Shown here piece after piece: positions 696-64,000 of a DNA stretch of 64,000 nucleotides; within the stretch, counting starts at the first letter, position 1; each line of letters begins with the position of its first letter. Source of the DNA: Botryllus schlosseri. Lineage: Eukaryota. The DNA is taken from the NCBI GenBank assembly GCA_051294905.1, contig CM119372.1, forward strand, positions 15,068,001 to 15,132,000, read 5' to 3'. Made by a program: the position numbers and the translations under genes. Under the pieces are notes generated by a model, which did no database searches, was not told the origin of the DNA, and saw only the letters and a program-made list of their open reading frames with translations.

Positions 696-976
696 AGTGG
701 TTCCCAAACTGGGGAGCGCGAAAGCATCTGTAGGGGAGGCGGAGATGCGCTCAACTGAAAATATTTTCGCGCTCCTCGCGATTTACTTGAGATTCATAGT
801 TATTGCTCCGTGTATAGTCCGGAATTCATCTTATAGAATTCTCTAATCAACAGTCATAACCTTCCACGCCATCAAACTACCTGTTGGGATTGCTAGCATT
901 CTGGTTGCATTGAGTGATATGACGATTTTTCAGTATCATAAAGGGGGGCGTTTTCAAAAAAGCTTAAGAACGACTG
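696..976. mobile_element. hAT (Charlie-like) MITE
   Basis: Starts CAGTGGTTCCCAAAC and ends in degenerate AAGAACGACTG. 8-bp TSD GCTTAGGG on both sides. Internal sequence resembles 49560-49876 in inverted orientation. Confidence 0.8.
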
Positions 977-3171: not shown

Positions 3172-3330
3172 CAGGGCTGTGGAGTCGGTCAATTTTACCA
3201 CCGACTCCAACTCCGACTTCACAGATTTTCAATGGACCGACTCCGACTCCTAAGTCTGTAAGCGTACCGACTCCGACTCCGGCTCCGACTCCGACGTCTT
3301 TAAACCTATATACCGACTCCGACTCCAACA
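3172..3330. mobile_element. End of a hAT-type MITE with CCGACT subterminal repeats
   Basis: CAGGGCTGTGGAGTCGG terminus followed by arrays of CCGACTCCGACT. Partner end not found. Confidence 0.55.
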
Positions 3331-5445
3331 GTATTGCCAATTTACTTCGAAAATTATATGCCGCAGTGACGGTTAAATGACTATCATATAACCATTAAAC
3401 ATATGCAAACATTCGAATAACGATGGCATGCAAAATTGTTTCATTGTGGCACAGCTCGAATTATGCACTATGTATGAAAGATTGTTTTTCTAAATATCCT
3501 TCCTTTTTTCATGTTTTATCAGGTTTTATAACATGGACCCTCTAATAACCTAATATGTATGAATCATTCAAACACGACATATATCCCATCCTGTATAATT
3601 GAAATGTAGATAAAACAATCGAAGTGTTGATACATCTTACTAATTTTCTCATTACACACAGTACTGATTACAAGCACACACATTCTGATTACTAATAGAC
3701 AATGGTCATTCACGTAATTTAGGAAGTAGTCAAATATAGCATATGTCTAGTCTACATGCACTTCGTCAAGTATCCAAGGACTAGGACCTGCAGTCTTTCT
3801 TAATCATTTGTTCGACCCAACCAACTAAGCTACACTAAAATATTTTTAATTATTTACATCAATTTTACAACCAGACGATATATTTGCTCTGTCATAATAT
3901 CATGGTATAATTCCAAAAATTGCATCAAATTGTGACTACATCGTGAAGATGCATATTGCTTCTTTCTTCCTGTATGCAACTGAATTGTAATTTGCAAATA
4001 TTGTCCAATTCTATCAATGTCAGGGGTGGCCAACCTTTTCGGCCAAAGAGCCACATGAGATTTACGAACCATTGCGCGGGCAACTTGAATGTTGATTACC
4101 TTTTTTAGTCGTCCGATAGGAACGATCCTAATGAGATAACATTAAAAACAAGACTTATATGACTACGCTTTAAAATTGATAACAATTATGTCATGAAATC
4201 TCCGTGTGCAACCGTACAGTGTGCACTGTGCAGTCATCCCCGGATTGTCCTTGATCTGGGGATTATCAACGAAAAACTCAAATAGGTCCCCTTCTACTAG
4301 TTGGAATTGAGTCAAATTTGTTTTTCAGCGTATTTGAAGACAACTTAACAATTTCATGGGGTTGACAGAAAAATTTGAATTTTTTTTTCCTAATAAATTA
4401 AAAATTTCAATTGAAGATTGCACGACCTGATCATTTAGTCGAGTGAAATTTGGAATTTTTTTAAACAACCCTACTGTCGACGGATTAGGAAATCAACGTT
4501 ACATGGTCGTATCTTTCTTTATCCCATCAAGTCGATTCGCCTAGTGATTAGCCTACTGATTAGCGTGGTCAGTAACGAATTACTTCTACTTTTTCGCAGT
4601 AGTTTTGCTCTACTTGTAGCTTTTACCCAAGTAAATCCTTCATAGATCTATTTATGCATGACTCTTTTGTACTCCTTGCAGGGATGAATTGGTAAGTTCA
4701 GGGAATCCTGCATCATAGGAGTTGGTGATCAATTACAAAAATTAAAGCACTGAAGAACATTGCTATATAGAAATAGAATCACGAGATTCACAAACGAGCG
4801 GGAATAGGTAAGCCGAACCAAGAAGTAAAACATTTTTTGTTTCTAATGGCTTATACGCACCAAAATCGGAATAATTACATTTAAATATCAATGGATATTA
4901 GCGGTCTAGACGCGCCAAGAGCGAATTATTTATGTTCTTTAATAAATTGTCAATAATATACGTTTTCGCTTAGATTACTGTTATTTTTTAGTCATGTCTC
5001 AGTCCACGTGATCAGATACACCAGTGGTGTTGAAGTGGCTGGTGTATTGGAAAATTTAGGGCACTTCTCCTGTACTACATTTACAATTTTCACACAAAAG
5101 ATCGTGCTAATCGCGAGGATTTTTAGTTGCAAGAAATTCAGCACGTACAAACCAAAAAATCTCTCTGGTGGGTCGCGACCGAAATTTAGACCCTTCGCCA
5201 CCGTTTGGGCCGCGAACCCCTGCCCTATAACTTTCACAAGCCTTGAACTTGATTGGTGTGTAAGTAATGGACTTTACGGAATGAGAAATTCAATGCTGTT
5301 GCTATAAAAACCTATACTTTTTAATAATGAGGAAGACACACTGACCGATTAGGCTATTTTTTACAGGAGCGCTGGGCTTATATATATCATTAATGTTTCT
5401 ATGCAACCAATGAATAACTATTGAATAAATACGAATACATCCTTA

Positions 5446-8026
5446 CATAGGCTCCGACTTTTATTTTTTTACGAGGTGGCGAAGTCTTGTGACGTCATGA
5501 TTGTTCCATATCGATGACGTCATCGTCGCACTAAAACGCACTTTACTACATGCTGCTGGTGTACCTGCAGCGTTAAACCATTCGTGTGACGTTTTAATAC
5601 TGGCCCTGCACTCATTAATATCAAAACATGCAGTCGAGTTATTAAATGGAATCTTTAAACGGTACGATCATTCGAAAGTGTAACTGCAGCCTGCGCTACC
5701 AGTCCGTCCGACGGAATGCATCGATCAAAAATCAGAATTTACGTCACTGAGAATCTGGAATTGCATCAATGTTATTCACTTCACGCGCAACACGCCGTGT
5801 GAGTAACGAAATACACTACGCACTAGCCTGCCAATTAATATACGAAAACTCTGGAATATTTCAAGCAGACAATAATGATGATTACAAACGCAAATTCGCT
5901 CACCCATCAGTAATTGTCTCTTGCGGTTTCTTGGATTGCTTCGCGTTGACCAACTCGCATCGCGGCAATTATTGGCAGATTAAAAGAGCGATTTGGGCGG
6001 CATTTGTGCATTTCCGATTTACGTTCACAAAGCATTTCGGGAGTACATCGGTCATTTCGTAAATTCAATTTGCATGTCGACGGCCGCCAACACGTACTGA
6101 TTGAATTACGTCTTTACGTGTTGACTGCCGCTGGTTGGCCACCACTGGGCTAGAATTAATTCCACTTCCGGGCGCATGCCGCGATCTTATCAATAGAAAT
6201 CCACTGTGTACCTAATAGTTTAATATTCGATATTGTTGTTCACGATACGAGTACATCCAGCAATCAAGTTTACCGGAATGTAGAAGGTGCCCTGCTCGAA
6301 CGAATCGAATAAAATCAAAATCTGTGCCACCCAGGATCTTGTGATGCATCAATATTTGATAATGGCATGGCATGGCCATTCACGTTAATAATGAAAGGAA
6401 CACTGAAAAATGACTTTGTGCGACAATTTCGGAGTACGAATGTATCAAGTAGATAACGAGAAATATGGATACCGAGATGGCAAACGAGAAAGCGTGTATA
6501 ATCAGTATCGCCACGAATGGGTTTGAGTCTGACACCGTATTGAGTAGCTTTCGTTGCGACAATTGTTTTCTCATTATATCGATGTTTAAGCTGTATTGCT
6601 GCATTTCCCGAATAATGTCACTGGCAAAACATTGTAGAGAAACCAATCTGCGCAGAAATGAATTCCAATTTGCAGGCACACGCCAACACATCATTCAATT
6701 TCGCGATCCGATTACCAAGACTATCACGAAGCTAGCTAGCTCACGAATGGTTTTGTAAACGAATACGAGCGCACATAATTTAGATGTCAGAAAGGCAGAA
6801 CGTCTATTTGGGCGCCTGATCGAGAGAAGAGATCCAGGGTGGTGCTTCTAAGCACAGGCTAGGCGCGTAGCCATGCAGTCGAAAAATTAGGGGGATTTAG
6901 ATTATTTTCCAATTTACCAATATAGCATCAATTCAAATCGAGTCAAGTACATGTGCATATGGCGATCATATAATCTCTTCGTATTGACGATTTTAGGCGT
7001 ATGATAAGCTTGCCAAAGAGGCGGGGAGTGCTGTCAATTAGCGAGTCCCTGATCTCTGGTGAGCAATTAAATACGCGCGCGTATTACGCAGTCTCGGCGA
7101 CAGATTTCGCAAATCAAAATGTCCGAACTTGATCGCAGCGAGTTCAAACCTTTGTCGTCTTTCAGAACTCAAGCCATGATAAACATCTTCTGATCGTTAC
7201 GTTCAAGTCTTAGCGAGACTAATTTTCGCACGTTAAAGTCTGTTTGCAGCGATTTGATGTTATTCAGTTTCGCGATGTCGCTTTTTAATCAATAATGACA
7301 TAAAACAATCACTAATTAGCGTAAACTCGACCGCATTGTCTCCAAACCAGCCAGAGATAGGAGACAAAGCATGCTATGCCCGAGACGCGATAGTCAGGCC
7401 AGCAATGCAATGAGATCTTTCACACCAGGCCTATTGCCGATACTACTGTGTAGGCAAGCGTGATATCGTGCACATCAGGCCGAAGCCGCCAATGCAGATG
7501 CGATTGCGCAGGCAAGCGATGATATAGTGTGAACTGGGCCTATTGCAGATGCGACTGTTCCAGCCTGCAGAACCAGGCTTGTTCGAGACGCGATAAATTA
7601 GGCTAGCGACGATTGCCACGCGCAGGGGAATGAATGACCTAATTTCGTGACTATTCAGCGGGCGATCATCGCAGACTCTTCTCTCTTGGCAACAGGTTTC
7701 TCGCAAATCAGCCGCGCGGAACACTGATAACGCAATTATTGAATTGCAACTGAATATTAGAGTTAGAATGATCATTTCAAAATGACGGGGATTCACGTTT
7801 CAAATAGAGAAGTTCGACTCGCGAAACCACCGTGGCTACGCCTACGCGCCTGGCACACGCGCGTATCGAAATCGAAGACGTCTGTAACGAGGCCGCATCG
7901 ATTCGCCTGATTAATAATTACTGGTCACAAATCACTTGGGCGTTTGAGCATTTGTACGAGGTGGCCGCCACCTCGTAAATATGATCACGAGGTGGCTACG
8001 AGGTGGCTCGTAAGTCGGCGCCTATG
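5446..8026. mobile_element. 2.6-kb non-autonomous hAT-like element
   Basis: TIRs CATAGGCTCCGACTT / AAGTCGGCGCCTATG, TSD CATCCTTA/CATCCTAA, ACGAGGTGGC subterminal motifs at both ends. An empty-site paralog lies at ~2370-2445. Confidence 0.85.
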
Positions 8027-9517
8027 CATCCTAATATATTATATACCCATGCCATGATGAATCTAATTCCGACCGCCGAGCGGAATAAAGACCTTTAACG
8101 TCAGAGTCCCTACTCACAGATACACATACTATTTGACCACTTGGCCAGTCATCGAATTCACGATATCAAGCGGAAGGGCTATATAAGGAATTGTAAACCA
8201 TTGAAATAGTACAGGAGCCATTATCGCCAGATATCGTCCTGCAGTAAAAATCCGAGTAATCCCCATTACCCCCCCCCAAATACCTACCTACCTTATATAT
8301 ACATACGTCGATTGCTGTATCGAGTTGACTGGTACTTACTCTGGTCGAGGACAGCAAAGCAAATAAAAAGTGAGCTAGGATTCATTATTTCGGGGACATC
8401 ATACGAATAGAATTCAATCGGAAATATTTCTTGCCTGTCGTTACCAGCTGGGTCCTCGGCCGATATTGTAGATCGAATACACGACATGTTTAATAGTTTC
8501 GCGAAGCAGTTCTCTAGGAAACTAGGATAAGCACACGATATAAAAAATATTACAAAAAGACCGCTAGGTGGGAAAGTTCTGCGTCATTATGACGTCACAA
8601 AGACATATAGTTTCCATCAGCTTATTCGGGGTCGGGTGCTAGAATGCTGATTACTGTTTAGCTTAGCTACTGATTACTGATTAGTGGGGAAAATTTTTGC
8701 AACTTTTGCAACTTTTTTGGCACCTTTCGGCAGTCAGAGTTCATGTAGTATCGTGTTTTAAGCTGTTTGTAGGAATTTTATATTGCAACTTTTTGCAACG
8801 TTTGTCTATTTTTATCATGCAACTTTTCACTGTGACTATTATCAAGTATTGCGCAAAATGTGAAGGAGTGATTTAAAAAAACATTCTGTAGAACTATTTC
8901 TAATATGGTTCTATTCTCTTTGATTTGCTTAACAAAGAGCCTGGTGATGGATTAGCTGAATCTCAATGTTATCTTTGACGCAACAGCTGGCTTGCAAGCT
9001 AGAAGTTCAACAATCCCAGCGGCCCAGCCTAGCACGACAGTGGCCGAACTAAATTAGAAGTGGAAATATGACTTGGCTTTGGGCCAAGCCCGCGCAATCG
9101 GCAACAGGTTGTGTCTAGTATTTCGAGGTCAAGTTTTGATATAGATCGCTTGATTAATTCACTACCGCTTAGATTTGAGGTCATTTCCCATTTTACGGAC
9201 GCTCGGGCAAGACCGCCAAAAATACATTTAAAACTGGGTCCACCTTTTCAGACCTATGTGAATCCGCCGGAATATGCTTACGTCATAAATACAAATTTGC
9301 TGATTCATTCTCTCGCCAGTGTTTCGCTCGTCGACGCACGAAATATTCGTCACGGAAATAAAAGATTTCATGCGTTAGTGAGAAAACAAGCACGTGTAGA
9401 GATGCTGAGAGGTCATATAAATATATCTAATAGAATGTTACATTACCTATGGTTGTTAAGCGACGGAGTTGAACGATGAAACCGTATTACTGATAATACT
9501 TGATTAGGGTCAGACTT

Positions 9518-10265
9518 GAACTTTAGCTTTGAATTCAAAATATTCTATTTTAAAATGCCCTTTGCTCGATTATACTCATATATACTGTAGATAAGACCCT
9601 TCTACTGTCCACGACATGTATTGATTTAATCATTTCGTGGAAGGCAAAACCAGCGGAATACTTGTGAGTTGCGAATAATTCACAATGCCGGTAACGCAAC
9701 TAAATGGTTGAAAAAACCGCTAACTTTAAACTAAAAATATCCTACTGTAAAATGCCTTTCGCTTAATTATACTTGTATATGTTGTAGATAACACCTACTG
9801 TCCACGAAATGTAATCATTCAATCAGTACCCCTCGAAGGGAAAGCCAGCGGAATACTTGTAAATTGCGAACAATTCACAATGCCGGTAACACGGCTGAAT
9901 GGTCGCAACTGAATTGTCGTGAAAACTGCTAACTTTGATTTCCAAATATCCTATTTTAAAATGCCTTTCGCTCGATTACACTCATATATGTTGTAGATAA
10001 GACCTTTTACTGTCCAGGAAATGTATTCATTCAATCAGTACCTCGAAGGGAAAGCCAGCGGAATACTTGTAAATTGCGAATAATTCAGAATGCCGGCAAA
10101 GCAACTATAGATGGTCGTGAAAACTGCTAACTTTGAACTCAATATTTCCTATTGTAAAATGCCTTTCGCTCAATTATACTCATATATGTTGTAGATAAGA
10201 CCTTCTACTGTCCAGGAAATGTATTCATTCAATCAGTACCTCGAAGGGAAAGCCAACGGAATACT
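9518..10265. repeat. Tandem repeat, ~200-bp unit, about 3.7 copies
   Basis: The motif AAAATGCCTTTCGCTC..ATACTCATATATG..TAGATAAGACC..TACTGTCCA..GGAAAGCCAGCGGAATACTTGT recurs near 9551, 9748, 9958 and 10156. Confidence 0.9.
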
Positions 10266-11217
10266 GTCTGTCCGGCGGCGATCAACTTCATTGTTATATC
10301 GAAGGTTCCCATTCAAACTAATCGCAGAAAATCAGAATATTCAACGCCGTCAATGAGTACTGAGTAATGTGAACTGAACTAAGCACCATCAAGTGACTTT
10401 ACGTAACAATTCGGGAATACGAGTGTATCAAGCACATAATAATAAATAATCGCCGAAACACCGGACGCGAAGCGCGCCTCCAACCAGTAATTCGTCTCAA
10501 GCATCCAACATAATGGGGTTCTGCGCTGCCATCGCAGTTAGCTAGGGCTGCCATATTTTTGAATTTCTGAAAAGAGTACACTTCATTTTTCAGACTTGCA
10601 ATAGGCTACCGGAGGTAAATCCTGAAAAAATGGTGAATTTTTCCCACTTCGTTGTCGGTTGACTAAAGAAAAAAAGGTCAACTTTCCGGCTCATCTCCCG
10701 AAATATAGTTTTTCTTCAACGTTATCCGTTGGTTGACTAAAAAAAGTCAACTTTCCGGCGCAGCTCTAGAAATAGCCGCCGGAGCGTTACTTCAGTGCAG
10801 ATTTATTGTATCTCAGTCGAATTTTGCCCAATATTTAACCAAAATTCTCAAAAAAGAGGACAAAATCCCCAAAAAGAGGACATTTGGGCGTCCTCCGAGG
10901 ACACTTTCAAAAAAGTGAAAAAGAGAACAAATCCTGCACTTCGCGATTAACGTTCGCGAATGCGAATGCTCAGGAATGCGTTGCAATTCACAGGCATACT
11001 GAATAACACAATGTGTGTGCGGGGTGTCAGTGCCTCTACTGCCTCGCCAGCCATGAACCTCGCCGCACGTATAGCGTACTTCTTGTCGAGTACCAAAATG
11101 AACTACTTTGACCTCTTCTACTGGCCTTCTTTGAAAGCGAGTCGATCCGCTTGTAAGACTCTCAACTTATATGTTTTATAATTTATTATGTTTAAAAAAC
11201 AAAATCTCATCTTATGT

Positions 11218-12074
11218 TCAATAATATATAGACGACGCCAAAGCTGCAGATGTTGGCGGATGCTGAAAAGAAAGAAGAAACATAAAAACGTTTTAATTAA
11301 CATCACAGCGTAATTAAACAACGCAACTGCATTGCAGACCCATCGTTAACTTACTCAGTGATAATCAGTCGATTTGACTTACCGAAAACCAAACTTCGTT
11401 TGCTCGATCCAGCGATTCCATCATTTTACCTGCAGTGCGAACCGCATATTCTTCAATAGACAAATTCATATTCGCTAATGCCAGCTTTATGTCTATCCTC
11501 GGTACACGCTTGCCTGAAATGACAATGAAACAGCAAATAAAATTTATATGATGAGTTTGCTATGTGTTGTATTGCGGTAACAATATGACCCTTCAAAGAA
11601 GTGTATAGGTTACGCAAGATAGGCCCGGTTGACATACAGGCAGTTATTTCGACAAACCTCTTACGATTCCGTCGTGCAAATGGAAAACCGAAATCTATAA
11701 ATTTGAAAATTCCAATAATATCGACAAGCTAATTAACGAACACCAAGGAAAACCAATAGAAGTGTCGCCTAAATGGACAAATTGCAATCTTACAGGCAGC
11801 ACCGGGCATGCAAGGGTGAAAGCACAGTGTGTAATCCCATAATACGTTCAGCCCTTTCAAATCTCGGACATTTCGGCCCGCTGCTTTCAAAAAGCGGTGG
11901 AGCTTGACTTTTTCCGAGGGCTTTAATACTTCAAGTGGAATGGGAACGTTCACACCTGTGAGACAAAAAGTGGCGGTAGTTGTGTTACATCCATTCAAAT
12001 CCTGCTTGCACGACATCGTAACACTTGCATTTCTGGGAATATTCATCAGGATAGTACCCTGGTTTCTTCGGGAT
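11218..12074 (-). CDS. 3' part of an unidentified spliced gene or pseudogene
   Basis: Phase-consistent candidate exons 12074-11794 (..LEVLKPSEKVKLHRFLKAAGRNVRDLKGLNVLWDYTLCFHPC..), 11694-11665 or 11590, 11513-11383 (KRVPRIDIKLALANMNLSIEEYAVRTAGKMMESLDRANEVWFS) and 11262-11218 (HPPTSAALASSIYY*). No recognisable family; the 5' end is unresolved. Confidence 0.45.
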
Positions 12075-13162
12075 CTAAAAAGAAATAGACACTAGTTTAA
12101 GTTTGGGTGATGATTACCGTCCGTTTGCAAATGGAAATCGAGGTGCATCGATGGTTTCCAAACATTAACTGCCACACAGGTGAAGTCATATAGGAAACAC
12201 TGAAAAATCTGTGTTGGTTTCTATTCTGCTGGCAGACATGGTTTGTAATCCAGGTCGGGTCAAATCATAGCCTTGCTATATGCTACCAAGAGCTTTTCGC
12301 AAAAGCCGCCGTGATGTGTAATTAAGATCACACAATATATAGTTTAACAAACATTTGTTCTTTCTAATGCAGTGGTTCCTAACTTAGAGTCCGTGAGAAG
12401 GCATTTGGGGGTCCGTGATTACCTTGTTGATTTTTTTGGGAAAAACGAGAAGCGATCTTTTTACTTTCATTTTCTCTTTAAATGCACATGTGTCAAACTC
12501 AAACATGCCACCATAAACTGTATCGGAATGCAATAAGATAAATAGATGCTGTGGCCAACAGTGTGTAATGTACATTGACCTTACATTACAGTACAATTCT
12601 ACCACTACCATAACGCATGTCGATTAGAGTCAAATCAGGATTACCTCGTCTATTACGTAATAGAAAACATGCAGTTTAGTTAGGAAAGGTAACAACAGCC
12701 TTTATATAAGTCCGGGCGAGGAACAACTCCCACTAAAAACCTCTGGCCCACTTCCCCTGGTGTGGAGATGTTTCTGTATCTTAGTATTATGTAAATTGTT
12801 GATTCAATTTTATTCCAATGGTATATGCAACTCTTGTTCTTTCGTTTGGTCGAATGACAATTTGACACAGTATATAGTATAGTTGACTACCATAATTTTT
12901 ATAAAAGTCAATAGTATAAATGTTAATCGATTTTCAGGCAAAATTTAGGCAGGGGTTCGCAGAATTACTATTTTGTTCAAAGGTTAGGAGCCACTACTGA
13001 CTAGTCTAATAAATAAAGAATCGAATGCGCAAGAACTTCACATATACGAAAAACGTCCTCGAATTTGTACTGCGACAATGATTGGGTCCATGAGTTGAAT
13101 ACGCTTGAGGTGTTATATTAATCCGTAAGCTGTCTACTTTCTCTTCATCTCCGGTTCCGCTA

Positions 13163-14418
13163 CAGGCGCGTATCCCGAGCGCGAAAAATGGGGGGGGGGG
13201 TTGCGTTACGAAATTGGTTTTTATGACGTCATTACTACGATCACTCGTCTCCACGCCTGGCGAATATTTACGATATATTATACTTTAATAATAAAAATAG
13301 ATTTGCGGTGAGTATGAGATGTACGAATACGATACAGTCATTGCCTGAAAATCGCGTTTTATACGGTATGATTGAAAGAAATTCGTAAATGCTCACATTT
13401 AGTCATGAGCCGGCAAACGCCGCCCATGTTCTGTTCAAGCGCCTACTTCCGGCCAGAGATGCGCGATTTTGTTGGGTTTTGACGATATTATGCGTACGGC
13501 CGGTAGTATCGCAGCGGACGAACAAGCGCGGAAGCATAAACGAGGGCGATCGCGATCGCCACAGAGAGGAGTGGTGTGAACAGCGTACGTCGTACACTAA
13601 TATGTGCTTTTCGATGGCTTTACTAGCCGTGCGGCTGAGCGTGTAGTACGCGCGAATATAATTAGACCTTAATTGCAGGCACACAAGTCAGTCAATTAAT
13701 ACAGAGTACACACTGGGATAATAACTTGATCGACTGAGAAACTTGTCAGCCGATATAATTAGGTTAACTTAACTACTAGGCCTACTCAATTCTCCCGTTC
13801 AGCGACAACATAGGCCTGTATTTGGACGACAGCAAGCCACCTAACAATCGGGAACGTGGATTGCTAGGCTTGTATTTTGAAATGTGAATGTCTATCGTAG
13901 GCCACTTCTCGCCAATAACCGCGAAGACAATGTGGATTTGAGAACAGCATTGTCGTACTGGTGCCGCCGTGTCTGCGTCTCGCTGATCAATCAACACGCC
14001 GTGCAATTATTAATTAGGATTTCAAGGCGAGCAGGTGCAGCGAATTCGCGGGTGAGGTTGATTGCCGACAACTTCGTCTTTGCAATTACGTATCGCGACG
14101 GCCAATTAGATTAGATTTTCCTAAAATGCGTCTCTCGTTTTAGCAAGGCTAGGGAAGAAGGTTGAGAACGTCAGCAACTGCCACAGCTGAAATGTAGCTG
14201 AACAAGCGCAGAATTCGTATGGAATTAGCGAAATATAATGACTTATTTTATCCTTTCAACTAATTCGGCGCATAATTTCCATATTTTGTAGGGGTTTTAG
14301 TCCCCATAAATAAACTAATAAATTAGCAATTATTAGAGGCTATATTTGACATCAATTTTTAGTATTTTGAAAAGGAGGGGTTCCGACCCCCTAACCCCCC
14401 GCCCTGGATACGCCACTG
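13163..14418. mobile_element. Non-autonomous hAT-like element
   Basis: TIRs CAGGCGCGTATCC / GGATACGCCACTG. Perfect TSD TTCCGCTA at 13155-13162 and 14419-14426. Confidence 0.88.
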
Positions 14419-15295
14419 TTCCGCTAATAATTATTTCGTCCGTTTGTCTATCAGTTAGTTCAGCATTCTGGTGTAGGGAGTTCTGTGAGTAGCATGTGTT
14501 TCCTGATTTACGTATGTTTTAACGTTTATATTCTTTGTATCATAGTCTACAACAGGGGTGTAAAACATCCGGCCCGCGGGCCGCATCCGGCCCACCAGGC
14601 GATTTCATCCGGCCTGTGAAGCAATTCTGAGTAGGTTGAAAAATTATTTTAGTATCCATCACATTTGTAACAAACATTGAGATTTTCTGCAGCAAATACT
14701 TTCTTAAAATAATCCCTCAAGACAGCAAATGTCGAGCATGTTCATTGTTCATAGGTCACATAACCACCCGACTATGGCGTTGTGATTTCACTCTCTCTTA
14801 TTCGAGAGAGCAAAAAGTACACACTGAGTTCAGAGTTTTATTGAAAATAGACCCAAAGTAGTTCTTCAAAGAAGCGAAAACACCAACGCCGAACAGGTTT
14901 ATGCAGTTTACATGGAAGATATATTAGTTACACAAAAATCCAATTCATATATTTATAATCGCACTGCTTTGTCGCTTCCCACCCTATCGGTCCCCGGACT
15001 CGAGATTAGGTTGGTAATCTATAATTCAACCGGACCACCATCGTATTTTTGCCAATTCGATTGCTTGCGAATAAAGGTATTGCGACGAGCTATAATAAAA
15101 CCTCTATGAAGTGTGTATTATTTATCCATATAAGCTTATTAATGAAGAATTCAAGTAAAAAGCAAGGGCACGGGGTAACATTTTGGAATGAGTTGACTGG
15201 TCCGACTTGCCGCCGATTAGAAGGCTTGAATCCGGCCGGCGACGCAATTTGAGTTTGACACCCATGCTACACTTTTAGTGAATAAAAGCTTAGAA

Positions 15296-16767
15296 CAGTG
15301 GTTCTCAACCTTTTTGGCTTCGCGGACCCCTTTTGACCGTCACGGACCCTCGCGGACCCCCTCAAGTTTTAGTTCAAATTTACCTATATTATGGAGCAAC
15401 CGTCATCTGTTTTTTGCAAATATGAACTGTAGGCTTGCGGTAAGCAGCAAAATAATGATTTTTTTTTTAAATAACATCATACTATTTATGTAGAAATTGC
15501 TTGACTTTTATTATTTCAAAGCTAATTTTGCTGTTGTATTTCTTGAAGTACGTGGTCGTGTCTTGGAAATCCGTGTCGTCGTTTTGATATGAACGAGGAG
15601 TGCCGAAAACCATTTTCACGAAGCTAGATGGAGGCTAATGCAATATTACCGCATAACGCTTCCTACGATACTTTTGGCGTGATCGCAACATTTATGGCAA
15701 CAAAATGAAGAAATACATATTTTATGAACATAACACGTCCAGCATCTAGCGCAGGGACGGGCAACATACGGACCACGGGCCGGATTCGGCCCGCGACAGC
15801 ATTTTAATCGGCCCGCAGAGAGTTTCTACCGTCAAAGTGAAATCCTAATTTAAAAGTATAGACAAATTTTATGCGCCAAAGAATGGATCCAAGTTTTCCA
15901 AGCGGAGAAAGACTGGCATGAAACGACTTGTTCTGTTCATGTTTAAATATATATTTACGAGCAAACATTTTCGACCACGAACAATTGAACATTAACAAGA
16001 CAAGGCTGCATACTGGTATAACTGGTGATATGAATTTCAGGGTTGGGGCGTAATGCTTTGATAGCAACACAACAATCATAAAAAAATCAGACTTGTCGAT
16101 AGGGGATCCGCAGTAAGAATGCGCCAGATCTGAGAGCCGAGCTTTGAGACGATTTATGACGAGTGTCAGCCAAAAATATTGGGGTTCATTTCAATATGAA
16201 TACACTATTCAATTGCATATTGAAGTTCTGTACCTGCAAGAAGCTGCGCAAATAGTGGTTAGCCTATGTATATCACAGGATAAAATGGATTTCGCGGCGA
16301 GGTTTCAATCCCTGCATTGGGACAAATTAGGGAAATACTTCGGAAATATTTATTTCAAACGACTGTTCACTAATTCGATGAGACTGAAAACTTCAAATCG
16401 AGAAGGTTTCGCAGACATTACGAAGTCACCCTGATTGACGTTACTATCTCCATATTTTTATTTTTCCACAAACATCAACAAAACGTCAACAAAAACAGCA
16501 ATATGTTCGTATGAGCAGGTTATTGGAATGTTGGCAATAAAAATGAATTTCCACACCACGACAGTTCATGTCAGACGATTACTATGATGATATGAGTCAT
16601 GAGGTATTAGCAGTTGTTGTGCGAAACTGCCTCATGCTTTCTCAAATAAAAAAAATAAAGTGAAAATTACGTTATCAACCATTTTAAAAATTTAAAGGTG
16701 TCGCGGACACCCTGAAATTGCTTCGCGGACCCCTAGGGGTCCGCGGACCCCCGGTTGAGAACCGCTG
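15296..16767. mobile_element. Charlie/Buster-type hAT derivative with transposase C-terminal remnant and a nested MITE fragment
   Basis: TIRs CAGTGGTTCTCAACC / GGTTGAGAACCGCTG, perfect TSD GCTTAGAA and CGCGGACCC subterminal repeats. 15480-15720 is homologous to 22205-22445. Another MITE end (CAGGGACGGGCAAC) starts at ~15751. Confidence 0.88.
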
Positions 16768-17794
16768 GCTTAGAAAGCCGTATGTTTATTGGTGGGTTTT
16801 CCACGAAAGGTCACGACAACGCTCAAACACCAACATTCAATCAGAATAGAAAAGAATGATCTCACCGGTTCGCCAAATGAAAAGAACTCTTTGAACCTTT
16901 TCTTTTCTTCCTGGTTGCCCTTCGATTGGCCTAATGAAAGAATATTACGCGTCAGACGTCATGACATACAAGTAGTGTTGGGAGCACCGCTGGCGACCGA
17001 TAAAAAACTTCAGGGATTCGTTGTCAATTTTGGAAGGCCCAGAATCGAGTCAATTTAACAATGCGGTCAAAATCATAAAAGGTATATATTTGACAAAGCG
17101 GTAATCAAAGTAAAGGATGGTTTGCTAGCAGTCGATGATAATGATATCGCAGACATGGGCGATGAACTAATAAGTCAAATCGACTTTAGCTGCTAATAGA
17201 TTCTATTTTCATGCAAGTTCGGATTCAACATTATTTCGATTTCGAATGCTGTAAACATTTGAAAGTCACCTAGAAGCCTCTGCTTTTCGATGATAACGCG
17301 AACTCCGGTCTCAATCGATGAAGCCAGTCGTTCTTCAAATCCCGTGTGCTCAAACACCTTCAGAGGTTCCACCAGCGTGAGCGTCACATCACTATTCGAA
17401 GGCGTTTCTGGAACGTGAATATCAGGCGTTGAAACATTGATTTTCAATGCTCAAAATGCAGGGTGAATTCGATCCTCAGTCATAGACGATCGGAAATTCA
17501 CAGTGTTTGAATAAGGATTGCGTCAAAAGCAGATGCATGACAAAGGAAAACTTAACCGACTATTGTGTCCATTGAAATAAACCCGAATATTACGTTTTAC
17601 GGGTCAGAAATATAATCAATCCGCTCATAAATCAGTACCAAACGAATCCCGCTCACCGGGATAGTAATTCCCTTCCCAAGCTCTGCGGATGCATGGCTGG
17701 AAATACTCGTCAGTCGTATTCTCTTTTCGCGGGTATCGAATGCGAGAATCTTAAAATCGGCATGTAATACCGGCCTAAACGCGTAAAGAGCCTA

Positions 17795-19473
17795 TCAGAA
17801 AGACTCACTGAGTCTCTGTGACAGCGACTGCCCCCTCAGAAACTTGTAATATCTCCCGTGTGACCTCCTGTCGACTTCTTTCAGCGACAAAGTAATCGAT
17901 CTTAGGTCTTGCTCCAACTTCTCTCCCTTTCTCTTTTCCTCTCGCTCTCTCTTTTTCTGCTCCTTTCTCTCTTTTCGACGCTGCTTCTCTACTCTGTCGA
18001 AGTCGTCCTCCAATTTCAATTTCACGGGCAACCATTTCTGAGGCGCCCTAAACACTCTGCTCACAGACAATCCGCTGCTATTGCCAGCCTCTTTTCTTTC
18101 TTGTCTCTCCTTCTCCCGCTCCAATTTCAATTGCAATCTGTCCTCTTTGTCCTGGTTGCGGAGAAACTCCTTAACTATCCTGCTATGTTCTTTGCTTTCT
18201 TTCTGCTTCATTTTTTCGATGAGCTTCCTTTCTTTCCTTTCCTTTCTTTTCTGCTTCTTCCTTAGAGCTTTCTCCTCCTTCCGTTCTTTGTATTCCATCT
18301 TTTTGTTTTCTTTATGAATATTTTTCAAGGCTTTCTTGGATTTCTTTCCGTTCAACTCCAAGTTGAAAGATTGTATTTCCTCGTCACCGTGTTTTTCGTG
18401 TAGTTTTGCAGGATACGCTTCATTATCTGATGATGATGAGCTTTCTGACGTCTAAAAATAATAGTGAGCACTGACCAACGTCACCTAATCAATAACGCCT
18501 ATATAGCAGAGCTAGACAACTAGAAACCTAGGCACCTGGTTTCTCGTCCTGTGGATAGTCGTTTAAAGTATTTATCAGATTGCGGATGATCAAATTACAA
18601 GCCCACCAATATTTTCTTATAATTCAAAATGCCCATCATCGTCGAGTCGCCTTTCTGAATTTCCTTTTCTGGTTTCTCCAGCTTGCTGGCAGAACGATTG
18701 AACTTTTTGTCGGCTGTTTCGTGAGATAGGCCTATAAGATGTAATTTATGTAACTTCTCTTCCAACTTCAAATCGACAGCGTTGTCTGTACTAGAGTGGT
18801 TCTGAATATGCAACAAGAGTATTGAATACAGAGTCATATTATAAAGTAAACGACATAAATTCAATACGAAAAGAAATTACAAAGCATTCCAATTTTCGCG
18901 GGTTCTTTCCAGAGCCTTCCGATTTGAGAATGTCGTAAATATTGACTGACTCCGAATCGGAATGTTGCTATTTAAATTGAAACAATTGTGAGATTACTGC
19001 CGACAAAAGAAACTTGATGTGGTTCAAAAAGCATACCTGTTCCGGGATCGCGATGTTTTTCGCGGATCCCTCCGATTTGAGGATGTTGGAGACATTCAAC
19101 GACTCCGAATCAGAATGTTGCTATGTAAAATTGAAACCACTGTGAGATTACTGAAAAAAAGAGAAACTTGATGAGAATAAGAAAGCACACCTTCTCGGGG
19201 ATATTCTTTGTCGAATCTTCTGATTTGAGGATATCGGAGATATTTAACGACTCCGAATCGGAATGTTGCTATGTAAAATTGAAACCATGTGAGATTACCG
19301 CCGAAAAGACAACTTGATATAAATGAAAAAGCATACCTGCTCCAGGGTGTTCTTTGGTGATTCCTCAGACTTTAGAATATCCGATATCTCAGAGTCGCAG
19401 CGCTCAGTGCCATTCTGCAAGAAGACATAAAGCCATGAACTCTACCTAACTCATTACCCATATATCATACCAT
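17795..19473 (-). CDS. Orphan ~393-aa protein: four N-terminal S/D-rich repeats plus a long K/E/R-rich helical or coiled-coil C-terminus
   Basis: ATG|gtatga at 19473-19471, then exons 19414-19337, 19268-19191, 19120-19037, 18967-18881, 18801-18607 and 18451-17795. All introns are GT-AG and phase 0, and the frame is open to the stop at 17795. The last exon contains the 188-aa ORF of the track. No recognised homolog. Confidence 0.75.
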
Positions 19474-44600: not shown

Positions 44601-47600
44601 AGCTTTATTTCCGGAAATTGAAGGCATTACTACACTTGCTTTTATACTTCAACATGTATGTTATCCAGACAAAAGAACTGATATTAACTATAACTCAAAG
44701 TATGTGATACTGGGAATTAAAAGTGAAATATAAATACTACCTCTAAAAGTGGAACATGTATTTCATGCTTTTAGTTCAGAAAGTTTCAAAGGTGGTATGC
44801 TGGAACAGCTCTAAAACTAAAAATAAGTCAGACTCCACTTTTCCAGATTAGGACACGCCATGGACAATGGACATGCTAGATTACGATATGACAAGTAAAT
44901 GCTAGATTGCGAAGCATCAGTTTCAAACGTTATGATGAGCCATATATAATGTGGTCAATTATTTCATATAGGCGAAGGGCCACAATGTGATGTAAACGGA
45001 ACCACGCCAACCCGCGACCTAAATTATATTCACCGATACTTTTGTGAAATCATAGTGGTCACTCCGTATCCACTGCGCGCGAAGCGGGACGAAAATTTTT
45101 GGCTTTACTCAACTTTTATGAAAATTAAATGTTGATACTCCGTGAAAACAGCCCCGAAATTTCACAGGCTATCTTCCTGATTGGAAGATTGAACTACTTC
45201 TACTTGACTAACTGAAAATAGCGAAAAGTAAGTAAGTAGATCACAAAATATTACGGAGTAGAAGCAGAAGTAGCGAAAATCAGATCTACTTGAGTAAGTA
45301 CCAGAAGTAGAGGAAAACTACTTGAGTACTTCGAACACCTCTGCTCATATCACACTCAAATTTGAATTTCACCATGGTGAAGTCACAATTGATGAAAGTA
45401 CGGTAACAGAGAAAGCAAATGCTTCATTTTGTTTATCTTTCCTCACATGTGCAACCACACGTTCGAAAAATGGTATTTGGAATCAACAATTTGACGACAT
45501 AAGTTTTCCCTATGTTCGCAACGAGCTTCATCCAAGAAGTGAACATGAGTTGTGTTGCAAAAAATTCGGCCCAAACCGCTGATACCTACTCACCCCCGTT
45601 GACAAGAAAGGGATCGCCGAATACGCTTCCCGTGTAAATCCCAGTTGCGGATTCTAGTAGGTGCCGGATCCAGGTATTACCCGACCCGGGAAAACTGATC
45701 AGGCCGACTTTCCGATCCAATTCCCCTACTTTCAAAAATCGTTTATGCTCACACCGCTTGTCTTCACTATTCGTGCGATATACAATAACGTAATTCCGAT
45801 CGCTCCCTGAACATCGAGTCATATTCACAGGTCGAGACAAGTCGAACCTGCAACGCAAATGTTGATAACAGATAAAGATTAACTTAGGTTGCAGATCAGA
45901 CTGTGCTTACTTTGCGGTAGTCAAGCCGCAGTAACAAACATTCGTGTTTGTCGGAATAGCCAATACCAGGCCAACATACTCGCATTGAAGCAGGCATCGC
46001 GCTACGACCATGTCCCCAATGACGGAGTACTCGTCCATGAATGCGCGGAGATTATTAGGCTTGCGATAGCATCCAATCACCGACTTTTCGTTCACAATAT
46101 TGGCAAGCGGACCAGCTGGAACGATTCGAGTAAGCAGCGATTCATCAGAAGTGTAGCCAGGGTGAAAATGTTAGAGGGCCAGTTGAAAATTTAGGCGAAA
46201 TTTATCGAACAAAAACATTGTGGCATTTAGTTATTCAAACGTGACGTTAATATGTCAAAGTGTTTGGGCACACAGGACCCCGCTCCTTCTTTCTGTAAAT
46301 GCCAGTGGTGATGGTGCTATGTGGGATAACAATAACTATACCAACTATATGATTATAGCGTCACCATAGTAGCACAACACGTACATATATTAAATTACGT
46401 CTATCAACATAATGCTCGAAAAACAATGAATTCTTCTCATAATCGTATCTGCTAAAGTTGATTCTTGATGCTAATAAATTCAGTTTAATCGGTAATAATG
46501 GTATGCTTGTTCAATATTGAGTACCAAATTTAATGAGTTTTTTTAAATAAAGTAACAATTTTATAACTACCTTTTTCAAATACTTCGTTAAAAGACTCAT
46601 TCATGCCAAGGCCTTATTGAACAGACAAAGAATACATATTGGGTTACCTGGTTTACACTGTGATTTCACTAGGTATACCATCGTTAGGTCTCTGTAGCCA
46701 CCACACATTCTTGATTCATCACCAACGCAAGGTAATTTGCATTTATTTCCACCTTCTTCTATGGCGATGAATGCACGGGGATAGTAGCTACAAATACATT
46801 CATTTCCGTTTCTTATTCCAGCAAAGACAAATTTCTTCTGCTTCACCCTGGACAAGACATATATAAGTTTAACAGGGCTGAAGTAACCAATGGAAAGGAT
46901 CGCTATCACATCTAATTCGAGCATCTCTTATATCAGTGTTTCTCAAATTCTTTCCCAACGTGTACCAGCGGTGCCAGCACTAATTCGATTTTTAACACAT
47001 GGCGTACCTCCAAGTTGTTTTTCACTACACGGCTACCACCTAAATCAGTGGTTCTCAACCGCCGGTCCGCGACGACATTCCTGCCGGTCCGCCAAGCATA
47101 TTAGAATTTTATACTTTAATTTCAAGATGCAATGTTGAAGGCTTGTTCATTGATAAAATAAATAAAACATCAAATTTTAAACTGATTGATAACTTCCTGA
47201 GGTAGCATTAGGGCTGGAAACATGTTCGATTTGACTTGAAGTTCAAGACGTGTCATTTGACGATATGCGAGCGGCAAGTACACAGAACAGATACGAGCCG
47301 ACTCCTCGCTAAACAGCGCAGTTTGATCATTGGTTTTCGATTCATTCATTTTGTGCAGGACCGTAACTGGGGCACCACAAACCGCCCAATTGGAGAGGGG
47401 CCGAGCTTGAATAGGGCTCAAAATTATTTCGCAAATGAACATAAATCATAGCGTATTTATTTGAAACTTTTTCTAACATTTTTCAATTTCTTTTCGCGCT
47501 TTTCACGATTTAGTATCCCTAAATGTCTTGCTTATTAGGTGCCCTTTTCTGAGAAATACGTAATGATTTATTGGTATTTTGGCATCAGCCATTACCACGC

Positions 47601-59779: not shown

Positions 59780-60895
59780 TGCCCGATACTGCAATGATCG
59801 CATAAAGCAGAGAAGAATATATACCTTCACGTTGTGTTATATACAGAGGTTGTCAGTTACGAAGTACTACTTTTTCAAAGTACTCAAGTAATTTTCGTCT
59901 ACTTCTAGTATTTACTCAAGTAAATCTAATTTTTTCTCTACTTCTACTTAGTAATATTTTGTGATTTACTTTCTTTTCGCTATTTGCAGTTTGTAAAGTA
60001 GAAGTAGAAGGCAATTTCAGACCAGCAGTTAATCACAACATATTGTTACAGAGGTCCCCGAATCGGGCCATCGAGTGTCTCATCCTTTCCATCGTTTTTA
60101 TGTCAACTAGTGCACCAGCCAAACAAGTTGTGTGGGATTTTGTACAGGAGCTTATAAGGCAGGGGCGTCCAACATTTTTGGTAAAGGAGCCACGTTGTGG
60201 TGTAGCCTACCAACGATTGCGCGTTGATGTGCGTCGTGTTGATGAGCTTATTTCCAAGGGAACTCTACCCTTACCCAGAAGTCAAATAAATCTGTCTAAA
60301 ATATTAAAATAATATAGGTCTACTTTATGTTAATTTATGGAAAATTTAGCAAAAACTGGGCTCACGAGTCAAGGGTTACTGTATCCGCAGCCAATATTAT
60401 CGAATTCCCATGATTGAATAATGTGCACTAGTCCAAACATCGTCGCATATTTGCCAAACTCTTGTTAGTTGAGTTGTTGAAATGTGGACTCTTGATAATC
60501 TCGAGACTCAATATGACGTAACAATAAAATATTCTTCATAAATCAGCTGCTGTCACGGTACTCGCTTCCGAAGTACATACCGTATCTTTCTCTGTGGAAA
60601 GGTTTTTTTATTTCGAATCCGTTTTAAATTTTGGATGATAATCTACAATCTGTATTAATTTATTGGTCATTTATAGTCAGATTCTTCATGATATAGAAAA
60701 TTTCACTCAAAGAAGAGAATTGAAGCTGGCAACTTAAATTGTGATTTTGGCTCCCTGGCAACTCAGTCAGCTGATAGATCACGTGACAAATTGTGATGTC
60801 ATAATAGCTATTGAAATAAAACGGAAAATAATTTTACAGTATTTCATTGTCGAGTAGTTTTATCCTTGTGAAGAGCCTCTAATAATTTGATAGCG

Positions 60896-63800
60896 ATGTC
60901 GTCTTATCGAATGCGCAATTCTTGCCCTCGTAGCAGGTAAATTTTTTTTAATCCTTCTCTTATATGCATGAGCTGTGGTGGTGTTGCGGCCAATCATTAG
61001 GTGACAGTCGGCATTTAGCTCTGCGATTGCTGCAGAAATACAAGTAATGTCATGTTCACTGTTCATTCATTGTGACTTACATTCGTACTGAGCTAACTGA
61101 CGGCAGATCGGGTGGCAGATCTACACTATTATGTTCATGCCTTACAGTCACATCCAGTGAACCATAAGATATAGTCTGTTTGGAAAATAGATTACATTCA
61201 AAATATACATTGATTGTTTCTAAGTTTCAAGATTTGTGCATCATGCTGTTTCAGTGCTACAATCCGTCGTGCTAAAGATGCCTTTCCGTCATCTTCGATC
61301 GGTTTCCATTTTCCTCTCGTGGAACAGGATAACTATGTGAGTTGAATAAAATGTCATACTGCATCTCATGTATCCCTACTAGGCATCACAAATTTTTTCT
61401 AGATTTCCTCACACGGAAAATATGTGAATCCTGCTAGTTTCCAAAACTTCCAGCCCATTGACAGAGATAACAACGTAAGTTTGTATTGCTGTTTGCCAAT
61501 ATGCAAATGGTCACCAAGTAATATTGTTTTTAGCGTCTAAAGAAAGCTTGGAATAGTTTGGTATCCTGCATGAGACCATTGTCCTGTATGCCTTGCGCAG
61601 TAAGCAGTGTTAATCTCCATTGAATATAATTATCACATGCATTTACACAAATCTATTCAATTTTTAGCGAGAACAACCTGTGCCAAAAAATTATCTTGAG
61701 GTGGGATTTCATACCATTCCTAATCATTATGGAGTTTACTACTCTCACTTTAATAGGAAAAGGAAGAGGTGGACAGCGAATATGACTCTCGGAATTTGCC
61801 GTTCTTGACATTAGTTAAAGAGTATCTTGCAATCGAAGAAGTAAGTTATTTTAGGATATAATTTAGAATCATTCCACTTTTTTACACTTAGGCCTACGCC
61901 AGATATCAATAGCATAGTGAAACCACGGGATGACATACCGGTAGGCTCTCTATGGTAGTTGCTAGGCATGCCATATTATGAATTGGCAACGATGATGATG
62001 AGACATCAATAAAAATATATAGAATAAATAAAATTTAGTAGTAGTTCAGTAGTTTAGTATAGTTGATGGGAACCCATTTTGCGGACCCCACTTAACGGCA
62101 CTTCTTTGCTGGTCCCATTTCACTCAAGGCAGCACGTCACTCACTCATGGATCCATGCTATAACAGATATTAACATTATTTTTTTGACACCTTCCAGAAT
62201 AAGATTGCTAACGAGATGAAGGATGTGCAGCGGAACCATAGAAATTCATTCAAAAATGGTCATGACCGAATGCTGGTAAGAGGATTATTTAAGTTAAAGT
62301 CCATTATTGAAAAAATTGAGCATGTATATCAATCTTGCGGGATTTGACCTTGTCGATTAGAGGCAAACAGGACGAGTTGTCCGTAAATTCCAGTGGCACA
62401 AGTTCAGGAAAGAGTATTCGAGTAAGGATTCAATCAATTCACGTATATCTGTTTACCGACCGTGTAGATTTGGGTGCATTCAAAACTAACTAGAAATACT
62501 GCATTTGTAAGTGGTGGATGAAGATATCCGCAGAACAACAATGTTGATAACAAATTTGATTTGGTATCATCATGGACTGTTTATAGTTATATCTTTGCAG
62601 TCTTCAGCCTGTCTAATGTCACTTTTCATCAATATTGCTGATTCAACTCCATCATTTTGCAGAAACAAAAATCCAAGTTTTCAAATTCGAAACAAAGGCT
62701 CCGCTATGAAGTAGATCTGTGCGATAACAATCCTCCGCAAAAGGTAAAATGTTTCGCGTAGAAATGTCATTGAAATATCCGAGGTGTCACTTTGAGTATT
62801 TCCATAGAAATTATGGCCCATGGCATCCAAACAACACTCCGTAGAAGTGTAATTGAGCACAACTAGTGGCTGACACACGAGAGCAAGAACATTGATAACG
62901 AAAAGAGCCATTTTACCACTTGGGTAAATTTTGAAACATTCTATTTAATGCGAGGATTTGGAGGAACGGAATCTGAAACGAGATAATTCGTTGAGGGCAT
63001 CTGACTCACCTCAAAGTCAGATTGTGAAATCTCGTGTAAGCTCCGTGTAGTGTCATTTCCTATTTCATTAAATTGATTGATTGATAACTATTAGCTTTCT
63101 TCATAGCACATCAATACTCTTCTGCAGATACCTATGTTGTTAATGTATAGAACATACTTTTGTTATCAATTCTGTTTATCTCAGACGATTCAACGAGATG
63201 CGCTACCCAACTCCATATCGTATAGGTTTCTAAAGTCATTGGGGTAGATATCTGTGTACACATAGGGCCATACATGTACCGAGACATACATATACTTTAA
63301 AATGTATTAAATGGAATAGATATATACCTTGCAGAAACGAACGGGGGAGAGAAGATCAAAGCCTAGATCAATCCCGACGGAAGAAACTAGTCAGAGAAAA
63401 GTGAGTTAACTATCAAGTGTATCTGAAAGACTCAAATTATTATATTATTATTTTGCCTCTTTTCAAGACTGGTCGTAAACCCGGTAAAATGATATCTGAA
63501 GATATTGCTTTCACCGAATCTCCATTGGATAACATGAGACAGGAATCCTTGGTATGAATTGAATTCAGCTCATTATGTTTTCAATGTAATGAGCCTGTTG
63601 ATAACAGGCGTTGGGGAAACAACATTTGAAAGTCAGGGACCAAGGTGATCCGAACCAGATGTCGCATCCCACCAACTCTGCTCTGAGATCTCGAGTAAGT
63701 TTACTTTTTGTAATATTGGAAACCCTATTGATTAGTGATGTATCAGACTTTAATGATATTGTATTTGCGATGGTATGTTCGATCAGCAATATTGTCATAC

Positions 63801-63931
63801 ACAGTTAAGCTTCCTTCATACTTTAATTCTCACGCCGTGAAAGTGATGTTATCTATATTGTTTAGAAGTCAAAACCAAGAAAGAATGCTAATCCCGAGTT
63901 GATTCTGCACGAGGGCAATGCTTGTCTTCAG
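60896..63931 (+). CDS. Orphan gene built from many small phase-0 exons, probably largely disordered; continues beyond the window
   Basis: Exon 60896-60936 (MSSYRMRNSCPRS) joins 61255-61336 in phase 2. Then come open phase 0-0 exons 61403-61474, 61534-61599, 61668-61700, 61757-61840, 62198-62275, 62371-62421, 62468-62506, 62663-62743, 62955-63035, 63335-63400, 63468-63551, 63608-63694 and 63866-63931. Each is bounded by AG and GT, most with a pyrimidine tract and a GTRAG-like donor. Confidence 0.72.
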
Positions 63932-64000
63932 GTACCCATTAATTTTGAGTATTGAGGACTTGAGGTGAGCTATGTAATTATTTTGAAGAGGGAAAGAAAA

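Follow-up and report, generated by a model that had tools for sequence, protein, structure and literature searches.

What is to be made of a chain of very short exons that escapes the open reading frame (ORF) track and in which almost every intron interrupts the reading frame in the same phase? The question is raised by the last part (from position 60,896) of a stretch of 64,000 nucleotides (nt) of the Botryllus schlosseri genome (GenBank assembly GCA_051294905.1, 495 Mb; contig CM119372.1, here C2, positions 15,068,001-15,132,000), which we call the window and whose numbering is used unless stated otherwise. A sequence-only reading had proposed for this part a hidden orphan gene of two leader exons and at least 13 symmetric mini-exons, similar in architecture to the micro-exon genes (MEGs) of schistosomes and possibly serving to diversify isoforms. 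We find that the locus, here gene A (or copy A; window 60896 onward), is a real protein-coding, multi-exon gene that is lineage-restricted. The window probably holds the 5' third of a weakly expressed gene whose exon array arose by modular growth and whose product is disordered.

A conserved exon chain at the end of the window

The locus was searched for stop-free stretches bounded by AG and GT that have the 13 lengths given by the sequence-only reading, in the order given there. Four chains fitted, identical except for where exon 4 (66 nt) and exon 11 (81 nt) were placed, and the chain with the best splice sites yielded the very peptides that had been quoted. Two leader exons joined in phase 2 and 13 symmetric phase-0 exons are thus present exactly as described (Table 1); seven of the 13 introns of this chain measure 46-68 nt, and frame 0 is the only open frame of exon 3. 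Exon 16, which starts at 63989, had not been listed. On the forward strand after position 60312 no stop-to-stop frame of at least 90 amino acids (aa) was found, and the ORF track therefore misses gene A, as had been noticed.

Chance is a poor source of such a chain. A naive splice-site chain finder, which could choose any phase and was given no conservation data, scored 187 on the locus strand, with 41 exons of which 37 ended in phase 0. The same finder was run on seven control stretches of equal length, taken from the reverse strand of the locus and from both strands of three other window regions, and gave chains of 12-23 exons that scored 32-62 and in which each phase made up about one third. 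The exon chain is far beyond chance.

Conservation between copies of the gene points in the same direction. Copy B lies on the same contig and strand, approximately 246 kb downstream, and is approximately 98% identical to A, while copy C lies inverted on the same contig and is approximately 80% identical; within the genome, the window exons of gene A (the exon 14 peptide included) are present only in copies A, B and C. The 12 window exons compared in copy B are identical to those of A, exon 10 being set aside, and the introns carry indels. Exon 1 is identical at 41 of 41 positions in both copies, its flanking intron at 29-41% of gapped alignment columns. All 15 window exons are stop-free in copy C and align without gaps (MAFFT), whereas the introns show 288 gap columns against 1,364 aligned columns and a Jukes-Cantor divergence of 0.245. 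Copies B and C also differ from A by single splice-site losses, which are tolerated without loss of frame: in B, a 13-nt deletion takes the last 8 nt of exon 10 together with its donor, and in C the acceptors of exons 8 and 9 are lost while their frames remain open. The latter two exons are the doubtful ones of the chain, as the naive finder left both out and the identity of exon 9 to copy C (0.74) is no better than that of introns.

Differences between A and C in 12 window exons fall on the three codon positions as 28/23/55. For the 13 symmetric window exons, the ratio of nonsynonymous to synonymous divergence (dN/dS) is 0.54 in frame, compared with 1.46 and 1.03 in the two shifted frames, and dS (approximately 0.22) equals the intron divergence.

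The full gene and its relatives in the genome

The window ends within the gene. The downstream DNA was searched for a splice-site chain with free phases and with conservation in copy C as a bonus. Between exon 15 and a large exon rich in lysine and glutamate (K/E-rich), the best chain contains 28 further exons, all of phase 0-0. The self-contained gene of 13-15 mini-exons that had been envisaged thereby gives way to a model of 47 exons and approximately 1,463 codons that extends 9.5 kb past the window, within which lie exons 1-15 and 12 nt of exon 16. The first intron of the model is in phase 2, the next 42 are in phase 0 and the last three in phase 1. The 41 symmetric exons measure 15-207 nt (median 72); they are followed by exon 44, which is K/E-rich, 667 nt long and intron-free, and by three phase-1 introns; these set off exons 45-47, two of type 1-1 and the last one terminal, which encode a conserved C-terminal module of approximately 140 aa. 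The modelled exons are open through 1,463 codons. Introns range from 46 to 679 nt (median approximately 100; 18 of 46 are 70 nt or shorter) and are GT-AG in all 46 cases, with CAG acceptors in 31 and TAG acceptors in 12; several donors and acceptors are weak by our own splice-site scoring. At a pan-eukaryotic baseline of 44.3% phase 0 for major introns, as given in an excerpt of PMC10639083, 42 consecutive phase-0 introns have by our own arithmetic a chance of approximately 1e-15. The run also holds without the conservation bonus (37 of 41 in the naive chain).

Two alternative ends of the model were rejected. A 236-aa K/E frame was ruled out as last exon by the colinearity of a distant paralog, D (see below), with exons further downstream; beyond the K/E exon, this copy pointed to three more exons, reached from a donor at gene position 11446. 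We also dropped a small candidate exon (gene position 12722), which is not followed by any frame-compatible acceptor.

When all 41 symmetric exons were compared with copy C, 38 acceptors and 40 donors were conserved and 33 exons were gap-free; for exons 16-43 these figures arise partly by construction, because conservation served as a bonus in the chain search. On re-mapping, six exons differed from C by internal indels of 6, 9, 36, 21, 3 and 9 nt, all multiples of three, and exon 6 showed two gap columns, yet it is gap-free under MAFFT. Differences fall mainly on the third codon position, at 102/102/190 (chi-square approximately 39, two degrees of freedom). The dN/dS over these exons is 0.41 in frame, compared with 1.12 and 0.97 in the shifted frames, with dS (0.26) near the intron divergence, and the K/E exon gives 0.38. 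By these substitution patterns, the exons of gene A are under moderate purifying selection.

Relatives of the C-terminal part are more widespread than those of the array. Searching with the frames of A (tblastn) identified the 3' part of paralog D inside the window (Table 1), with 32-55% identity to A (E from 0.006 to 1e-16) and with the splice positions of the last two introns in common. The stretch upstream of the D exons scored like background with the naive finder (window 20000, minus strand), and D therefore lacks a comparable array there. The middle C-terminal exon has matches at no fewer than 14 places in the genome, on five contigs. The last two exons, separated by introns, were found in five of six regions examined (five fetched relatives and window copy D); a search for retrocopies found no intronless joining of these two exons in four of the five relatives or in D, and in the fifth relative (L026) only one of the two was matched. 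A family member on contig C6 carries mini-exon arrays in which phase 0 is dominant, with repeated two-exon units of 60+54 nt. An acidic motif, D-x-S-[DE]-[FI]-[LF]-K-S, occurs in exons 37 and 38 of A (L004 8474-8680 and 9332-9532) as well as in the C6 member (locus L031/L032, F coordinates 16545-17203); it is a candidate for a short linear motif conserved across the family.

The neighbourhood of the window is itself duplicated on the contig, approximately 242-246 kb apart (C2:15,31x,xxx-15,39x,xxx); a paralog D exon, for example, has a 100% identical copy at C2:15322087. This doubling may be a very recent segmental duplication or may reflect uncollapsed haplotypes. Approximately 10 kb past the end of gene A lies an inverted, tail-to-tail partial copy, E (C2:15145641-15149323), which contains only the 3' part: the K/E exon with the last two phase-0 exons (42-43) before it and the C-terminal exons after it. 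It sits beside A where the complete inverted copy C sits beside B.

Table 1. Exons of gene A within the window, and the part of paralog D found there (C, copy C).
Feature	Position	Strand	Remarks
Exon 1	60896..60936	+	41 nt; ATG at 60896; ends after 2 codon bases; donor GTAAAT
Exon 2	61255..61336	+	82 nt; AG/GT-bounded; starts in phase 2 (junction with exon 1), ends in phase 0
Exon 3	61403..61474	+	72 nt; phase 0-0; gap-free and stop-free, AG/GT conserved in C
Exon 4	61534..61599	+	66 nt; phase 0-0; chain search, alignment to C
Exon 5	61668..61700	+	33 nt; phase 0-0; chain search, alignment to C
Exon 6	61757..61840	+	84 nt; phase 0-0; chain search, alignment to C
Exon 7	62198..62275	+	78 nt; phase 0-0; chain search, alignment to C
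Exon 8, doubtful	62371..62421	+	51 nt; phase 0-0; weak acceptor aaacag; C has TG instead of AG
Exon 9, doubtful	62468..62506	+	39 nt; phase 0-0; acceptor in C not AG
Exon 10	62663..62743	+	81 nt; phase 0-0; chain search, alignment to C
Exon 11	62955..63035	+	81 nt; phase 0-0; chain search, alignment to C
Exon 12	63335..63400	+	66 nt; phase 0-0; chain search, alignment to C
Exon 13	63468..63551	+	84 nt; phase 0-0; chain search, alignment to C
Exon 14	63608..63694	+	87 nt; phase 0-0; chain search, alignment to C
Exon 15	63866..63931	+	66 nt; phase 0-0; chain search, alignment to C
Exon 16, first 12 nt	63989..64000	+	84 nt in total; phase 0-0; runs past the window; 31 further exons downstream
Paralog D, 3' part	11398..18699	-	distant paralog; tblastn of A frames
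D exons matching downstream exons of A	18598-18699, 18089-18334, 17259-17402, 11762-12001, 11398-11529	-	tblastn

Upstream of gene A, a 115-aa open frame on the forward strand (59965-60312) ends approximately 580 nt before the ATG; it could represent a repeat or the last part of a neighbouring gene. By eye only, a CACGTG (E-box-like) motif and a TGATGTCA motif were seen at 60770-60800, approximately 100 nt upstream of the ATG.

Transcripts and protein product

The run listing showed no RNA run found to contain the stretch, and only runs of the same species were used. Four of these (X3, X5, X7 and X8) were aligned to locus L010, which corresponds to gene positions 851-10850. Altogether 53 reads aligned (X3, 19; X5, 4; X7, 2; X8, 28), all of them only partly on genomic sequence, with a likeness of 95-99%. 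Exon 2 and exon 33 were each covered by three or more X8 reads, those on exon 2 (three) lying over L010 place 423, i.e. window 61273. Three X8 reads start only 4 nt into predicted exon 33, and over 18 nt their loose end corresponds, save for two mismatches, to the end of predicted exon 32. This is the outcome expected from removing the 64-nt intron between exons 32 and 33, so that transcription, and splicing at one predicted phase-0 boundary, are evident for gene A or a close relative. As no fetched copy provides an exact match, the loose end would come from a diverged allele or a paralog. Judged by these four runs, gene A is probably weakly expressed.

In intron 43, the last phase-0 intron, a 30-nt element (L010 9831-9861) collected 8 + 13 reads from X3 and 3 + 6 from X8. 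These reads carry unrelated flanks on both sides, and short similar pieces lie elsewhere near the locus. Probably the element is a short repeat that is contained in abundant transcripts.

The modelled product consists of 12.4% K, 10.0% E, 9.8% S and 7.0% R, with K+R amounting to 19.5%, D+E to 16.7%, S+T to 14.1% and ILVFMWY to 22.9%. The first 25 residues have a mean hydropathy of -0.94, and the top 19-residue window reaches 1.03; by hydropathy, with no dedicated signal-peptide predictor applied, neither a hydrophobic leader nor a membrane-spanning candidate was found, in agreement with the sequence-only reading, which had seen no signal peptide. From these properties we infer that the product is an intracellular, largely disordered polyampholyte. 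It may be located in the nucleus.

The same reading had recognised no domain, and the searches bear this out. Four Pfam scans gave nothing above chance; on 21 exon peptides no family was found at E<=0.1, apart from one sub-threshold chance match. Word-indexed searches of longer proteins with the K/E-rich exon and with a profile of nine family exons found no homolog, and phmmer with the 90-aa C-terminal frame against 1.84 billion representatives found no credible one, two matches to bacterial repeat proteins, aligned in several stretches, being judged spurious. A sequence profile run against PDB returned only catalase (E 0.44) and the ESM Atlas no usable match. AlphaFold2, given an alignment of nine sequences of the middle C-terminal exon, produced an unusable model with a mean predicted local distance difference test score of 47.8. 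These outside searches used single exons, and distant orthologs could thus be missed. As a control we used an exon of a neighbouring gene, a WSC-domain sialate O-sulfotransferase-like (WSCD) one with exons at 45586-46927 on the minus strand. Among named proteins this exon best matched those of Clavelina, Ciona and Styela (48-55% identity), while the best unnamed matches stood at 63-69%, none exceeding 70%, from which it follows that other ascidian proteomes are in the protein collection and that of Botryllus schlosseri itself apparently is not. The term orphan holds outside the genome, where no homolog was found, but not inside it, where gene A has near-identical and 80% copies and its C-terminal module recurs at the 14 or more places mentioned above.

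Origin of the phase-0 run

Some exons of the array resemble each other. Exon peptides are similar within the groups 25/26, 27/30/32/34 and 31/33/35, with E down to 7e-8; seven of the nine similar pairs (E<0.01) fall among exons 25-35, and the DNA of the array at 5735-6146, in a numbering other than that of the window, is 71% identical to that at 6199-6640, intron included. By this sequence comparison, parts of the array are tandem duplicates of exon or two-exon units. We therefore favour, as the probable explanation stated at the outset, modular growth of the array, in which the N-terminal region would have lengthened as phase-0 exon units were tandemly duplicated again and again, diverged and were now and then lost. 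Each mini-exon would probably represent a short linear motif or a charged spacer of a multivalent scaffold, which the helix-like K/E-rich exon and the C-terminal family domain may anchor. Since phase symmetry keeps the gain and loss of exons frame-neutral, the phase-0 run would be mainly a footprint and an enabler of such growth, and we do not take it as evidence of programmed isoform diversification.

Several observations weigh against this reading. Only nine of 820 exon pairs are similar; as the sequence-only reading had noted, no window exon is an obvious repeat of another, with just two weak hints (exons 13/16 and 15/21, E approximately 0.006), so that a duplication origin is not demonstrated for the part of the array that lies in the window. 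Exons 16-43 are predicted by chain search and not taken from transcripts; predicted exon 32 was at first wrong and was lengthened to 114 nt after the RNA loose end had been seen, and the 15-nt exon 28 has no support in copy C. None of the 53 reads contains a splice junction within the window, and no joint reached the listing threshold. The loose end itself agrees at 16 of the 18 letters tested and at approximately 20 of 26 when extended by eye, and most X3 and some X8 reads lie on the 30-nt repeat and are uninformative for gene A. Finally, no homolog, fold or domain was found for the product, whose disorder and intracellular location are read from composition alone.

Instead of growing by duplication, the phase-0 run could stem mainly from intron gain into a once-long exon at AG/G proto-splice sites, which in coding sequence rich in K, E and Q fall preferentially at codon ends (AAG, GAG, CAG). 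Consistent with this, 15 of the 41 symmetric exons end in CAG, AAG or GAG, most exons start with codons whose first base is G or A (D 10, K 6, R 5, A 5, V 4), 811 of the 820 exon pairs show no similarity, and many introns are minimal, 18 of the 46 being no longer than 70 nt. Against it, the 667-nt exon 44, which is the richest in K/E, has no intron at all, the demonstrable repeats contain their introns, and the C6 relative repeats entire two-exon units. We regard intron gain as a rather unlikely main source of the run.

A second alternative is the one put forward by the sequence-only reading, a micro-exon-gene-like diversifier in which combinatorial skipping of symmetric exons creates many isoforms. 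All 41 internal exons are symmetric, so that any skip keeps the frame; the copies that lost splice sites (the exon 10 donor in B, the exon 8 and 9 acceptors in C) keep theirs open; and several donors and acceptors of gene A are weak, as noted above. Like MEGs, gene A has small symmetric exons with lengths divisible by three, belongs to a multi-copy family, is restricted to its lineage and goes unseen by ORF-based annotation. According to the excerpted text of 10.1101/2023.06.21.545858, however, MEGs have exons of 3-81 bp, mostly 15 bp, and introns of 0.1-5 kb, and their products are secreted, carry signal peptides and measure at most 189 aa. Set against that account, gene A has exons of 15-207 nt with a median of 72, introns mostly of approximately 50-300 nt (many of 46-70 nt), and a protein of approximately 1,463 aa with no hydrophobic leader, so that the proposed likeness breaks down over the sizes of protein, exons and introns as well as over the signal peptide. 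The exons are moreover under purifying selection throughout (dN/dS 0.41), and in the RNA reads no joint reached the listing threshold. Given the known tie of symmetric exons to tandem duplication, the pattern is explained without regulated skipping, and we consider a diversifier of this kind unlikely. A non-functional locus, be it a chance chain of open stretches bounded by AG and GT or a decaying pseudogene copy, might be suspected from the very low expression in the four RNA runs, the lack of a homolog found outside the genome and the two poorly supported exons, but it is very improbable and already largely refuted by the frame-specific selection, the indel-free exons beside indel-rich introns, the control scores that are 3-6 times lower with mixed phases, and a frame that is open over the full length of the modelled exons.

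Comparison with known systems and significance

Modular growth has well-described parallels. As reported in an excerpt of Schad et al. 2013 (PMC3632108), proteins that are mostly disordered tend to be encoded by genes made of consecutive symmetric exons derived from internal tandem duplication, with MBD1 (0,0 exons) and calpastatin and MAP2 (1,1 exons) as examples. Gene A resembles the genes portrayed there in its long symmetric run of a single phase, comprising 42 consecutive phase-0 introns, in its charged product of low hydrophobicity and in its internal tandem exon duplications; it departs from them in that its family has no detectable relatives outside the genome and its disorder is deduced from composition only. 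To our knowledge, its run of 41 exons is much longer than those of the three examples. It is this class, disordered-protein genes built of symmetric exons of one phase, that gene A best fits.

The genes of the secretory calcium-binding phosphoprotein (SCPP/SIBLING/enamel) group, as described in the same excerpt (PMC3632108), were built by adding and duplicating modules of class 0,0. Like them, gene A combines modular exons that are all phase 0, tandem exon duplication, and fast divergence with a conserved architecture. In contrast to SCPPs, which are secreted and have a first exon coding for a signal peptide, gene A lacks a hydrophobic leader; it possesses a K/E-rich exon, and its C-terminal module is carried by 1-1 exons. 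In the PEVK region of titin, dozens of short symmetric exons encode a charged disordered segment and are heavily alternatively spliced, which tunes an elastic spring. Gene A likewise has dozens of short symmetric exons for a charged segment, but neither evidence of such splicing nor the context of an elastic spring.

By itself, gene A opens no long-standing question. Annotation based on ORFs, and probably also annotation based on homology, will miss or truncate this gene and its family. We also considered, as a speculative idea to which we give little credence, that the family is ascidian-restricted and joins a conserved C-terminal module to fast-evolving arrays of approximately 40 phase-0 mini-exons that are used as cassettes, which could be included, skipped, duplicated or lost at no cost to the frame, yielding isoforms of an intracellular scaffold specific for individuals or cell types; if true, such cassette use would be an intracellular counterpart of the variation in schistosome MEGs. 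Gene A represents an unusually clean and extreme case of frame-neutral modular gene growth. With three neighbouring copies (approximately 98% and 80% identical) that differ by single splice-site losses, it offers a convenient natural system, in which one could ask, in a chordate relative, whether arrays of symmetric mini-exons serve isoform variation or are no more than tolerated.

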